Assembly (NCBI GenBank): GCA_963782055.1
Contig: CAWAIF010000003.1
Coordinates: 3,040,001 to 3,104,000, forward strand
Origin: an uncultured delta proteobacterium
Lineage (GTDB): Bacteria; Myxococcota_A; Polyangia; Polyangiales; Polyangiaceae
Length of the DNA stretch: 64,000 bases
Reading direction: 5' to 3'
The notes beneath the pieces are model-generated. The model had not been told where the DNA came from and searched no databases. It saw only the letters and a list, made by a program, of their open reading frames with translations. Shown here in pieces: positions 46,365-58,735 of this stretch. Position numbers and translations under genes: made by a program. The number at the start of each line of letters is the position of its first letter. The first letter of the stretch is position 1.

Positions 46365-47294
46365 TCAGCGCACCGCGGCGCGGGACGCGGCGAGCGCCGC
46401 CGTCCAGTCGGCGGCGCACCTGAGCGGGTCGTCCCCGGGTCGCAGGCCGGCGCAGGCGAGCGTGTCGCGGCGCGGGGCGAGGAGCATGTACTCGCCACGC
46501 GTCACGAAGGGGTAGGTGCCGCGCCAGCCCAGCTCGATCACGGCCTGGTCGTGCTGGGCCCGCTCGCGCACGTCGCTCGCGTGCAGCTCGGCCAGCTTGG
46601 CGGCGATGCCGGCGCGCGTTTGCGGGTCGTCCGCCAGCGCATAGGCGCGCTCCAGCCCGACGATGGCGGCGTTGCGCTGCCCCTGCCGGTCGAGCAGGTA
46701 GGCCGCGCTGATGGAGTGCGACGGGTCGTCGCCCAGCTCCACGGCCCGCGACAGGGCGTGGGCCCCGTCCGCGCGCCAGCGCTCCGCCTCCGCCTTGGAG
46801 GAGAGATACGTCGGCGCCATGAACGCCAGAAACTGCCCGTAGTGCTCCCAGACCTCGTAGTCGTCCGGTCGCTCGCGTGTGCCCCGCTCCAGGATGCGCC
46901 GCGCGGTCCGCACGTCCTGCTCGGTCCCGACAGGGTAGTGATAGACCAGCAGCGTGTCGGCGTAGTGGTAGACCGGCGCGTAATCCGGCTCCAGCTCCAG
47001 GATGGCGTCCATGTAGCGAGACGCGTCCGGGAAGGTGCGCTTCTCCGCCCAGTGCATGCCGTACTCCACCCGCAGCTTGGCCCAGAGCATGTCCACCGTC
47101 GCGGCGTCGTAGCCCAGCGTGGCGAGCTTGAGCTCGGCGGGCGGAGGGAAGAGGTAGACGTCCTGCCGCTCCTTCGTCTCGTGCAGCGTCGTCGCGAGGC
47201 CCGGCTGCGTCGCCGCCACCACCGCCCCGCCAGTCAGCAGGATGAGCACCAGCGCCGGCACCGCGCTCGGCTCGTGCCTCGCGGCGGCGGTCAT
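46365..47294 (-). CDS. Pilin-locus TPR-like accessory protein (possibly PilG/XapA-like)
   Basis: N-terminal hydrophobic segment; LGYDAATVDMLW, ILELEPDY, LERGTRERPDDY; ATGA-coupled to the upstream pilin. Confidence 0.6.
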   Translation of the reverse strand: MTAAARHEPSAVPALVLILLTGGAVVAATQPGLATTLHETKERQDVYLFPPPAELKLATLGYDAATVDMLWAKLRVEYGMHWAEKRTFPDASRYMDAILELEPDYAPVYHYADTLLVYHYPVGTEQDVRTARRILERGTRERPDDYEVWEHYGQFLAFMAPTYLSSKAEAERWRADGAHALSRAVELGDDPSHSISAAYLLDRQGQRNAAIVGLERAYALADDPQTRAGIAAKLAELHASDVRERAQHDQAVIELGWRGTYPFVTRGEYMLLAPRRDTLACAGLRPGDDPLRCAADWTAALAASRAAVR

Positions 47295-47827
47295 TCGAGC
47301 TCCGCCTCCACCCGCATGCCGGGCAGCACGCGCGCGCCCCTGGCGTCGTCCACGCCGTCGATCGCGAAGCTGCTCGTCGTGCCGTCGCCGTCCAGATCCC
47401 CGTGCGCGTGCGCCGAGAAGTGAGCCTGCGTGGCGTCGTGGCTCGCGTCCAGCTCGAAGGAGAAGGCGTGGGGTACGCCGTCCGGTGCAGGCTTGAACCC
47501 GAGCGCCTTCCATGTCGGGTGTTCCCAGAGCGCCGGCGGGTCCGCCACCGGCTTGCCACGCGGCGGCACGGCGGGAGTGAGCGGGGCGGAGCCTGGGAAC
47601 GCCTCGTTCGGCCCCTTGCCCTGCGCGCCCGCGACCGCGGCCTCCCCGATGCGCTTCAGGCCATCCACCGGCTCCGAGAGTCGCGACGCGTGCAGGTTGC
47701 GCACGAAGGCGGGCACCGAGACCGCCAGCAGCGAGCCCACGAGGGCGAAGCCGATGGCCGCCTCCAGCGCCGTCAGGCCTCGCTGCCGGCCGCGCCGGCG
47801 CAGGACGACGATGCGCGCCCTCCGCAT
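47291..47827 (-). CDS. Type IV pilin-like protein (minor)
   Basis: Class III signal RG|LTALE plus hydrophobic helix; AHGDLDGDG motif. Confidence 0.8.
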   Translation of the reverse strand: MRRARIVVLRRRGRQRGLTALEAAIGFALVGSLLAVSVPAFVRNLHASRLSEPVDGLKRIGEAAVAGAQGKGPNEAFPGSAPLTPAVPPRGKPVADPPALWEHPTWKALGFKPAPDGVPHAFSFELDASHDATQAHFSAHAHGDLDGDGTTSSFAIDGVDDARGARVLPGMRVEAELE

Positions 47828-48381
47828 CACTCCTCCGGGTCGATGCGCTCGATCGCCGGGTCCACCTTCGCGGTGAGGGTGGAGTCCGCCGAAACGTGCG
47901 CGCGGAAGGTCGACGTCCTGCCGTTTCCGTCCAGATCGCCGTGGGCCTCGGCCGTGCCCTGCGCGGACGGCCCGCTCCCGCGCGACTCGAACGAGTAAGC
48001 GTAGTACTGCGGCGTGGAGATGGAGAAGCGCATGTCCAGCCACGGAGAGACCGACCAGTCCGCCACGGCGCTCTGGTAACGCTTCCCCCGCACGTCGGTG
48101 AGGTCCGCGGGGACGCTCGCGCGCGAGGACGGCGGGAAGTGCCGCATCGCCTTGGCGGCGTCCGGCTTGGTGCCCGCCGGCTGCAGGCTGTCCGACTCGT
48201 CGTAGTAGACGGCGGCGGCCTGCGCGATGCCCGTCGTCGAGCCCACCGCCTCCGCCGTCTTGCTGTGGCGTACGTAGCGGGCCAGCCCGTACATCGCGAG
48301 CGCCGCGAGCAGGGCGGTGAGGCCGATAAGGTTCATCAGCTCGAGCATGCTGAAGCCTCGCGCGCGGGAGAGCGCGGGCAT
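47827..48381 (-). CDS. Type IV pilin-like protein (minor)
   Basis: RG|FSMLE; SKTAEA; PQYYAY; AHGDLDGNG; ends DPEE. Confidence 0.85.
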   Translation of the reverse strand: MPALSRARGFSMLELMNLIGLTALLAALAMYGLARYVRHSKTAEAVGSTTGIAQAAAVYYDESDSLQPAGTKPDAAKAMRHFPPSSRASVPADLTDVRGKRYQSAVADWSVSPWLDMRFSISTPQYYAYSFESRGSGPSAQGTAEAHGDLDGNGRTSTFRAHVSADSTLTAKVDPAIERIDPEE

Positions 48382-48478
48382 GTTAGGACGGTACGCAGGC
48401 GCCGGCACGGAAGCCACGAAGCTACCATAGCGCGGGCCCCCGTCGCCAAGAAGCGCGGCCAGGCCCGCGCCGAGCCCG

Positions 48479-57151: not shown

Positions 57152-57204
57152 GAGGCATCTTCCCCCGGATTTCGCGGCAGGTTGGGGCTCCGAGGGGCTC
57201 CGAC

Positions 57205-57241
57205 TGACAATTTCCGTCACCCCGCCCAACAAAGATCGTCA
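57205..57241. promoter_or_regulatory. Putative PilR enhancer sites
   Basis: TGAC-N7-GTCA (57205-57219) and a degenerate CAAC-N7-GTCA 22 bp away (57227-57241), about 80-115 bp upstream of the sigma54 start. Confidence 0.5.
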
Positions 57242-57250
57242 CTCGCCGCA

Positions 57251-58735
57251 TCACGCACGCTCCTTCCCAGGCTCCTGCGTCTCCAGCTTCACGCGGCTCT
57301 CCGACGGCGCCTCCTGGTCCTCCTCGGTGGCCATCGCCAGCTTCTGGAGGCGGTAGCGCAGGCTCCGGAGCGAGACGCCCAGCAGCTTGGCCGCGCTGGT
57401 GCGCACGCCCCCGGTCTTCTCCAGCGCCTGGAGGATCAGGCGGCGCTCCGCCTCGCCCAGGACCTGGTCCAGCTCGCAGCCCTCCTCGGGCAGGTGCAGC
57501 AGCTCCGGGGTCGGCTGCGCCGACGCGCCGCCCACCTCCCGCGGCAGATCGCCTAGGCCGATGATGCTGCTCTCTGCCAGCGCCACCGCCCGCTCCACCA
57601 CGTTCTCCAGCTCGCGCACGTTGCCCGGGAAGGAGTAGGCGTCGAGCGCGCGAAGGGCGTCGGCGGAGAAGCCGTCCATCACCTTGCCGTGCTCCGCGGC
57701 GCACCGCCGCAGGAAGTGCTCGGCGAGCTCGCCGATGTCCTCCCGCCGCTCGCGCAGAGGAGGCAGCTCGATGCGGATGACGTTCAGGCGGTAGTACAGG
57801 TCCTGGCGGAACTTGCCCGCCTTGACGTCCTCCTCCACGTTGCGGTTGGTCGCCGCGACGACGCGCACGTCCACAGGGAGCTCGGCGGTGGCCCCCACGC
57901 CGCGCACCTTGCGCTCCTGGACGACGCGCAGCAGCTTCACCTGGAGCTGCGGCGCGAGCTCGCCCACCTCGTCGAGGAGCACGGTGCCGCCGTCGGCGTC
58001 GCGGAAGATCCCCGCGTGCTGGCGGCTCGCGCCGGTGAAGGCGCCCTTCTCGTGGCCGAAGAGCTCGCTCTCCATGAGCTCCTCCGGGATGGCGCCGCAG
58101 TTGACGACCAGGAACGGCTTGCCGGTCCGGTCGCTCTGCTCGTGGATGGCGCGCGCGACGCGCTCCTTGCCGGTGCCGCTCTCGCCCGTGATGAGCACGG
58201 TCCCGCGGGAGCTCGCGACGCGACCGATGAGGTCCAGCACCCGGCGCATCGCCTCGGAGTGGCCGAGCAGGCCCTTCGGCCTGGCGCGGTCCACCTGCGC
58301 GCGCAGTCGCTCGTTCTCGGCATACAGCGCGCGCTTCTCCAGCGCCTTGGCGACGAGCGCCTTGAGCTCGGAGGTCGCGAACGGCTTGGTGACGAAGTCG
58401 TACGCGCCCCGCTTCATGGCGTCGACGGCCGTCTCCATCGCGCCGTACGCCGTCATGACGATGACCTCGGTGTGCTGGCTGCGGTTCCGGGCGGTGGTGA
58501 GCACGTCGAGCCCGGAGCCGTCGGGCATCATGAGATCGGTGATGACCAGATCGAAGGGGGAGGGCGCCCCGCGGACCGCCTCGCACGCCTCGGCGAAGCC
58601 GGCGGCGAGGGCCACCTCGTGCCCCTCCCGCCGCAGCAGGATGGAGAGCATGTCGCGAAGCCCGCGCTCATCGTCGGCGACGAGGATGCGGGGCTTGCGC
58701 CCGAGCACCGGGGGTTCCGAGACGACCTTGGGCAT
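57251..58735 (-). CDS. pilR: Sigma54-dependent response regulator (NtrC family), PilR-like
   Basis: Receiver (ADD, TDLMMP, TAY, KPF), GESGTGKE, ESELFGHEKGAFTGA, GNVREL, Fis HTH; directly upstream of the pilins. Confidence 0.85.
   Translation of the reverse strand: MPKVVSEPPVLGRKPRILVADDERGLRDMLSILLRREGHEVALAAGFAEACEAVRGAPSPFDLVITDLMMPDGSGLDVLTTARNRSQHTEVIVMTAYGAMETAVDAMKRGAYDFVTKPFATSELKALVAKALEKRALYAENERLRAQVDRARPKGLLGHSEAMRRVLDLIGRVASSRGTVLITGESGTGKERVARAIHEQSDRTGKPFLVVNCGAIPEELMESELFGHEKGAFTGASRQHAGIFRDADGGTVLLDEVGELAPQLQVKLLRVVQERKVRGVGATAELPVDVRVVAATNRNVEEDVKAGKFRQDLYYRLNVIRIELPPLRERREDIGELAEHFLRRCAAEHGKVMDGFSADALRALDAYSFPGNVRELENVVERAVALAESSIIGLGDLPREVGGASAQPTPELLHLPEEGCELDQVLGEAERRLILQALEKTGGVRTSAAKLLGVSLRSLRYRLQKLAMATEEDQEAPSESRVKLETQEPGKERA

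Follow-up and report, generated by a model that had tools for sequence, protein, structure and literature searches.

The window studied here is a 64,000-nt stretch of the genome of an uncultured delta proteobacterium of the Polyangiaceae (order Polyangiales), and it holds a type IV pilin locus in which four genes assigned to membrane glycosyltransferases of the C type (GT-C) lie between pilA and two further pilin genes (Table 1). Two of the four encode paralogous proteins, A and B, in which a GT-C domain is combined with tetratricopeptide repeats (TPR); they and the PMT_2/ArnT-like gene that separates them, here called the middle gene, overlap by 4 bp at each of two junctions (TTGA and ATGA), and the AftD/YfhO-like gene is convergent with B. 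Genes were called with a codon-model gene caller trained on the host genome (G000), together with Pfam/TIGR-type family scans, and this recovered at identical coordinates all ten genes and the overlaps described in an earlier reading of the sequence (the original prediction). A TTG codon was chosen as the start of the middle gene, the alternative being a GTG at 54088. PilA is likely the major pilin, because it has a canonical N-terminus and a strong ribosome-binding site.

Table 1. Genes and regulatory site of the pilin locus, in window coordinates
Feature	Position	Strand	Length	Basis and remarks
PilR-type sigma-54 activator (receiver, AAA+, helix-turn-helix)	57251..58735	-	494 aa	Pfam; conserved core
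Sigma-54 -24/-12 site, 1 mismatch	57136..57151	-		13 nt ahead of the ATG of the first pilin
Type IV pilin 1, GFTLVE	56565..57122	-	185 aa	N_methyl and TIGR02532; conserved core
PilA, GFTLIE; predicted acceptor	55915..56496	-	193 aa	Family scans
Enzyme A, GT-C + TPR, TfpW/TMTC family	54142..55833	-	563 aa	AlphaFold, structural search, BLASTP, motifs
Middle gene, PMT_2/ArnT-like GT-C, DDE136	52331..54145	-	about 604 aa	PMT_2, motif, HHalign
Enzyme B, GT-C + TPR, TfpW/TMTC family	50706..52334	-	542 aa	Profile, motifs, BLASTP
Convergent gene, AftD/YfhO-like GT-C	48479..50683	+	734 aa	AlphaFold, Foldseek, Atlas
Pilin 3, degenerate GFSMLE	47827..48381	-	184 aa	Weak NF041775 match and orthologues; conserved core
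Pilin 4, GLTALE	47291..47827	-	178 aa	Family scan and orthologues; conserved core
Membrane-anchored TPR accessory protein	46365..47294	-	309 aa	Weak TPR matches; conserved core

Orthologues of PilR occupy the same position in 38 other loci, and the TPR accessory gene is part of 41 other loci, whether GT-C genes are present or absent. The sigma-54 promoter that had been proposed ahead of the first pilin gains from comparison more than from its own sequence. In 19 of the 33 loci scanned, counting the window, a site with at most two mismatches separates pilR from the first pilin (six more were skipped, having no pilin motif within 1.2 kb), but the match alone is not above chance, since the window holds four sites at this threshold where 17 are expected. 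A transcript starting from the site would be nearly leaderless, given how close the ATG lies.

Fold, motifs and kinship with TfpW

The GT-C fold claimed for all four membrane proteins was borne out, on a predicted fold for A and the convergent gene and on profiles and motifs for B and the middle gene. In a wide structural search the AlphaFold model of A (pLDDT 94) aligned with Pmt1-Pmt2 (Z 21.4, 358 residues, root-mean-square deviation 4.9), ArnT (Z 20.9) and Pmt4 (20.9), and also with STT3, AglB, ALG12, PglB and AftB. Among the matches listed, a PDB sequence search with A or its alignment and a Foldseek search with the full model of A returned TPR proteins only, and Pfam likewise recognises only TPRs in A and B. 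The PglL/TfpO type of O-oligosaccharyltransferase (Wzy_C, PF04932) does not occur in the locus, its two matches in the genome both lying far off, and no TMEM260-like gene was found in the host genome.

Using the motif definitions M1-M7 in the available text of PMC7801869, we compared A (D33-D34, YYRP70, GRFD146, KE183, DRYAY344) and B (D32-D33, YYRP69, GRQD143, RE184, DRYAY339) with animal TMTC1-4, the cadherin O-mannosyltransferases of CAZy family GT105. Both proteins share the GT-C plus TPR architecture and keep M1 (DD), the YRP part of M2, M3 (RxD), M4 (KE, or RE in B) and M7 in the form DRxxY; unlike the animal proteins they have no match to Pfam TMTC_DUF1736 (PF08409), lack M5 (DW) and the S-H-K-S residues of M2, and carry fewer TPRs. 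The likeness runs through published motifs, no animal sequence having been compared directly. The missing S-H-K-S residues have been modelled as mannose contacts in the same paper (PMC7801869), which also notes uncharacterised full-length homologues in prokaryotes; pilins do not come up in its main text. More distant bacterial homologues, P0023 and P0053, do match PF08409. The TMTC label first given to A and B therefore stands for architecture and for M1, M3, M4 and M7, and fails at DUF1736 and M5.

These motifs also bear on whether A and B transfer sugar at all. They might be pilin-specific chaperones or assembly factors, given that some pilin accessory genes, such as TfpX/Y/Z, have no modifying activity (PMC11841053, in the part available), that B has R for K in the KE motif and that neither protein has DW. 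We think this very improbable: the DD motif, found in 35 of 36 pilin-region TMTC-like members, is invariant across 35 members at a mean column identity of only 28%, and YRP, GRxD and DRxxY are kept as well.

The PMT/ArnT-like label of the middle gene held, its PMT_2 scores of 26.6 and 32.8 bits exceeding the cut-off of 26.1. D137 and E138 are invariant in 17 sequences of its family, a DE motif shared with ArnT and other PMT_2 proteins, and HHalign aligned it with the TMTC-like profile (probability 96.7%) with the acidic motifs in register; it differs from ArnT in lying outside any arn operon, and no TPR or MIR domain was found in it. For the convergent gene, Foldseek with the AlphaFold model (pLDDT 83) gave AftD as best match (E 6.7e-8), followed by AftA, STT3, AglB and ArnT, the first 36 rows being GT-C enzymes, and in the Atlas the protein stands beside YfhO-type clusters (0.99). 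With mycobacterial AftD and AftA and Bacillus YfhO it shares the predicted fold, a large periplasmic domain before the last transmembrane (TM) helix and an acidic residue in the first loop (D68). However, its identity to these proteins is low and it matched no Pfam family, YfhO (PF09586) included, so that its YfhO label survives on fold and Atlas placement and not on Pfam; in its family PF09586 matches weakly in three of 13 members (best E 3.3e-4). What supports the two labels, TMTC-like and YfhO-like, is the evidence from motifs, profiles and folds.

The comparison that carries most weight for function is with TfpW, the pilin D-arabinofuranosyltransferase of Pseudomonas paraeruginosa and of P. 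aeruginosa group IV strains such as Pa5196 and PA7. TfpW crosses the membrane with 11 TM segments, carries a DDX motif in the periplasm as well as a YX6PFX7P motif, and ends in a TPR domain; it is encoded behind pilA and moves D-arabinofuranose (D-Araf) from a lipid-linked precursor onto several Ser and Thr residues of the pilin (bioRxiv 10.1101/2020.04.19.049825, available text). In P. paraeruginosa the order pilA-tfpW-tfpX is found in most strains (PMC12369383, available text). A TMTC-like profile built from 35 pilin-region TM domains matched a single open reading frame (ORF) in P. paraeruginosa ATCC 9027 (E 2e-47). This ORF, of 641 aa, lies directly behind pilA and ahead of a 245-aa gene of TfpX size and carries both published motifs, DDX and YX6PFX7P, and we take it to be TfpW on species, position and motifs rather than annotation. 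BLASTP aligned it with A (27% over 181 columns, E 3e-9) and with B (32% over 144 columns, E 6e-12), and a reciprocal profile built from nine TfpW-side proteins scored A at 70 bits and B at 58, with no match to the middle or the convergent gene. TfpW thus belongs to the same family as A and B, because the TMTC-like profile matches only the ORF behind pilA in that species, an ORF with TfpW's motifs. Among Pseudomonadaceae the family profile matches 33 of 201 genomes; a pilin lies within 1.5 kb of 19 of 20 examined matches, and YX6PFX7P is present in seven of the 20. In Pseudomonas delhiensis (L262), pilA, a TfpW/TMTC-family gene and a GT2 gene stand in a row, a compact module that includes a candidate donor synthase.

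Several observations limit how far this kinship can be pressed. A and B fall near the bottom of 101 family proteins on the TfpW-clade profile, YX6PFX7P occurs in none of 36 pilin-region members (A and B included), and a quick tree of the 101 proteins, with no animal sequence included, places A and B in a 15-row clade (SH-aLRT 96) distinct from that of TfpW. They are also apart from the bacterial DUF1736-bearing proteins in this tree, whose backbone is without resolution. A and B are therefore neither TfpW orthologues nor TMTC proteins in the strict sense. The two systems have in common a gene directly behind pilA in an exchangeable accessory position, a GT-C domain of about 11 TM segments with DD in periplasmic loop 1, a C-terminal TPR, and the YxRP, GRxD and KE motifs. 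In contrast, the TfpW system uses one enzyme where the window has two paralogues and two other GT-C types, and here no TfpX-like gene was recognised.

The original prediction had set TfpW apart from TMTC-like proteins, a separation that the profile and pairwise matches contradict. The homology makes pilin glycosylation likelier than was then argued and at the same time removes much of the novelty claimed for the locus, which was overstated, TfpW being a proven pilin O-glycosyltransferase of the same family. The locus is a real multi-enzyme variant of the TfpW kind, not a new category.

Linkage to pilins and a variable slot in relatives

Linkage between the TMTC-like family and pilins was counted from the best 150 of 165 TMTC-like matches, which represent 85 genes in 49 genomes, and the best 150 of 505 pilA-type matches, collapsed to 125 loci, with one genome (G117) left out. 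Among the matches listed, 28 of the 85 TMTC-like genes have a pilA-type pilin no more than 15 kb away, where about 0.6 would be expected, and 23 of the 49 genomes hold such a pair; these statistics treat kin genomes as if separate, though they are not independent. The family as a whole has matches in 90 of 151 genomes of the host's order (G117 counted as one genome in this and other tallies over 151). Another genus of the order is represented by G030 (several contigs), in which 11 PilA-type and 10 TMTC-family matches occur, a joint expansion.

Other counts weigh against a dedicated tie to pilins. More than half of the listed TMTC-like genes (57 of 85) are not near a listed pilA, and 19 of 20 such genes that were fetched have no pilin within about 6.5 kb. 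Besides A and B the host genome holds three orphan members, and there are three in a genome of the same genus (G108); the family must therefore have other substrates. A single-protein search had suggested that G108 lacks any TMTC-like gene, and since the profile search then found these three orphans, only the statement that it has none at the pilin locus stands. The family of the middle gene occurs in 46 of 150 other genomes and in none of 53 other pilin loci, and the family of the convergent gene is pilin-linked in only three of eight other genomes with strong matches. The conserved linkage expected by the original prediction is thus seen for the TMTC-like genes and not for the ArnT-like family.

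Such orphans would fit A and B being general protein O-glycosyltransferases that serve minor pilins, adhesins or lipoproteins, with PilA not the main target. Most family members in the order are orphans, the TPR domain of human TMEM260 alone selects acceptor peptides (10.64898/2026.03.17.711096, available text), and pilin 3 is as rich in Ser and Thr (a fraction of 0.204) as PilA. We nevertheless consider it unlikely that PilA is a secondary target, in view of the strong and repeated adjacency to major pilins, which includes stand-alone modules of a pilin with its glycosyltransferase and extends to a second phylum, and in view of the TfpW precedent.

The pilin locus itself was compared in 53 regions around pilA-type matches in relatives. 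Within the window's family the best pilA match was taken from 22 of the 23 genomes having one, some on short contigs; outside it the choice of loci was non-random, so that counts over the 53 regions are not frequencies. The conserved core (PilR and/or the TPR gene) is present in 43 regions, 18 of which hold a TMTC-like gene and 24 some recognisable GT-C type; four of the ten non-core pilin loci carry TMTC-like genes too. Within the window's family, seven of 22 genomes have a TMTC-like gene in the region and two more have a member of the convergent gene's family. The tandem pair of A and B lies behind pilA also in G030, and in G108 the core is the same, but pilin 3 follows pilA at a distance of 83 bp, all four GT-C genes being absent from this place. 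On a PilR tree of 39 loci, the presence of a TMTC-like gene changes at least 11 times. Elsewhere the slot or its flanks contain TMEM260-like GT-Cs, PMT_2 and YfhO types, membrane sulfatase-like and spermidine-synthase-like fusions (seven loci), or a GT2/flippase/epimerase block, and methyltransferase genes are also seen in the slot. Since G108 is without the four genes, the slot content varies and presence changes so often on the PilR tree, the insert in the window is best described as a cassette of membrane modifiers that is exchanged while the pilin locus around it stays stable. Synteny, proposed originally as a check, is accordingly kept for the pilR-pilin-pilA-pilins-TPR core, and the insert is swapped among relatives.

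Two accounts of how the cassette arrived were considered. PilA is closer to that of G030, which has the pair (60.5% identity), than to that of the same-genus G108, which does not (52.3%), whereas seven of the eight other locus genes are closer to G108. This pattern speaks for mobility, and pilA may have moved together with the cassette, but the PilA tree does not resolve the window, G030 and G108. Recent transfer from a distant donor is not supported, the cassette having a GC content of 75.4% against 73.2% for the window.

That the slot attracts varied genes also underlies the most serious alternative, in which A and B glycosylate the pilin and the other two genes, ArnT-like and AftD/YfhO-like, serve to modify a different glycan of the envelope (lipid A, O-antigen or exopolysaccharide), being present since the locus is a hotspot for surface-modifying genes. 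AftD acts on lipids or glycans, not on proteins. The same applies to YfhO (PMC5836110, available text) and to ArnT (bioRxiv 10.1101/2020.04.19.049825). The absence of the ArnT-like family from the other pilin loci, and the sulfatase-like, spermidine-synthase-like, methyltransferase and GT2/flippase genes found in the slot of relatives, point the same way. On the other hand, the overlaps of the ArnT-like gene with A on one side and B on the other suggest translational coupling, and in two families orthologues of the AftD/YfhO-like gene lie on the flanks of the pilin locus, though their positions differ. We give this division of labour a chance somewhat short of even.

Several other features of these loci and of the host genome were recorded. 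TMEM260-like GT-C genes were identified at pilin loci by Pfam (L050, L056, L067, L069) and by BLAST cluster (L059, L124), and in L067, L069 and L124 no TMTC-like gene accompanies them, as though they served as alternative initiators. Seven loci (L036, L038, L040, L041, L069, L122 and L125) have, in or beside the slot, a membrane protein of some 1,070-1,160 aa that carries a fused spermidine-synthase-like domain and is a candidate pilin or glycan aminopropyl/methyl transferase. Two recurrent multi-TM families of 500-650 aa, with no Pfam match in the members scanned, occur near pilins: one at L041:10502, L045:7168, L050:10630 and L063:2674, and in the host genome at C2:233910 beside a GtrB-like gene, the other at L056:5159, L062:11105, L063:5708 and L128:18305. 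Two PilA-like heads, with 61% and 45% identity, are encoded in the host genome (G000:C3:4487952-4488545 and C3:681329-681922), and in both a proline-rich N-terminus replaces the prepilin leader. Around the locus (58871-63998 and 43923-45485) lie genes for a PEGA-domain Ser/Thr kinase, for an unannotated protein of about 580 aa and for a lipoprotein-like product of 520 aa, which accompany the pilin core in many relatives. Beside the TPR gene (45580-46308, + strand) lies a unit of about 700 bp with three elements: an inverted repeat on the 5' side, a site of sigma-54 type (45685-45700) and an ORF for a MarR-like winged-helix protein (45712-46308). It is dispersed through the host genome at about 48 other places (49 blastn matches at E<=1e-20, of which 30 begin at the same point), most copies having 73-93% protein identity, and may be a mobile or recently amplified element.

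Acceptor, donor and a proposed route to glycosylated pili

The richness of PilA in Ser and Thr was part of the original argument. Beyond residue 28, PilA has 33 such residues (21.4%, compared with 16.3% in the G108 pilin), a value only modestly above that of relatives. Pilins beside TMTC-like genes have a higher Ser plus Thr fraction than other pilins (0.196, n=19, vs 0.168, n=23; uncorrected p=0.005; three loci were skipped for want of a cleavage motif), but on eight independent pairs the excess, though in the same direction, is not significant (median p 0.375), and we have downgraded Ser/Thr richness as evidence for glycosylation.

Further points against the pilin as substrate concern the donor. 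The locus holds no donor synthase gene, and ten PMT_2-type genes in the host genome could use the same donors. A polyprenyl-phosphate sugar synthase of GT2 type had been suggested to lie elsewhere, and the genome does offer candidates: its 14 GT2 matches include, outside the locus, a gene resembling dolichol-phosphate-mannose (DPM) synthase (C3:6689994; E 1.5e-29 to PDB 5mlz) and a GtrB/PgfS-like gene (C2:231972). A D-Araf donor pathway would call for decaprenyl-phosphate phosphoribose (DPPR) synthase, DprE1 and DprE2. A gene resembling DPPR synthase (C2:108288) is present just under the cut-off (216 bits, cut-off 234), but no DprE1-like gene was recognised among the FAD_binding_4/ALO matches, judged by eye, and D-Araf is for this reason a doubtful sugar here. 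A hexose is more likely, and mannose is unproven.

Taken together, the pili of this bacterium are likely sugar-coated by a multi-enzyme variant of a TfpW-type system, by analogy with the Pseudomonas enzyme. We think it probable that the four GT-C genes form an accessory cassette in a conserved pilin locus and that A and B O-glycosylate Ser and Thr of PilA from a polyprenyl-phosphate sugar; that the transfer to PilA is made by A, B or both has, with TfpW as guide, a good chance of being correct. PilR and sigma-54 would drive pilin 1 and pilA, and probably also the three overlapping glycosyltransferase genes if these are co-transcribed. An unlinked GT2 enzyme, DPM-synthase-like or GtrB-like, would probably load a monosaccharide onto polyprenyl phosphate. 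A and/or B would then hold the membrane-anchored pilin head through the TPR and transfer the sugar in the periplasm with the DD motif. Extension or capping of the glycan may fall to the ArnT-like and AftD/YfhO-like enzymes; this is the weakest step of the scheme, and the chances for and against it seem to us about evenly balanced. The glycan of TfpW masks pili from phage (bioRxiv 10.1101/150227; PMC11841053, available texts), and by analogy the glycan proposed here could mask pili from pilus-binding phages. A role in kin recognition finds no support here.

A broader interpretation, which is possible but which we hold with less than even confidence and as a single whole, would place TfpW, the myxobacterial enzymes and animal TMTCs in one family with a bacterial branch that glycosylates pilins, would see the pilA locus in this order as a hypervariable pilus-coating cassette that builds strain-specific pilin glycans stepwise in the periplasm, and would have TMTC- and TMEM260-like initiators combined with ArnT-, AftD/YfhO-, sulfatase- and spermidine-synthase-like decorators. 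If true, it would amount to eukaryote-style sequential O-glycosylation, in which the two non-POMT families of animal O-mannosyltransferases would both have bacterial homologues at work on a single, defined substrate.

Our search of the open-access literature, with subscription journals and supplements outside its reach, returned no relevant paper joining TfpW with TMTC, and the family link may therefore be unrecorded. It gave nothing on TMTC with bacterial pilin glycosylation, and nothing relevant, by title or start of abstract, on pilin glycosylation in Myxococcota or names beginning Polyangi. The available text of a paper on the Myxococcus xanthus pilus structure mentions glycosylation in general terms only (PMC11046646), and bacteria are absent from the main text of the preprint on human TMEM260 structure (10.64898/2026.03.17.711096).

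Through these results a bacterial family that is very common but unannotated gains a likely substrate and a sequence link to TfpW, the enzyme whose glycan on the pilin protects against phage. The PDB matches listed for the models of A and the convergent gene include no TMTC entry, and a compact homologue from bacteria, with a pilin as its small and defined acceptor, would therefore be a practical model for TMTC chemistry. Myxobacteria depend on pili for social motility, and variable pilus coats would bear on phage resistance and cell-cell interactions in these organisms.

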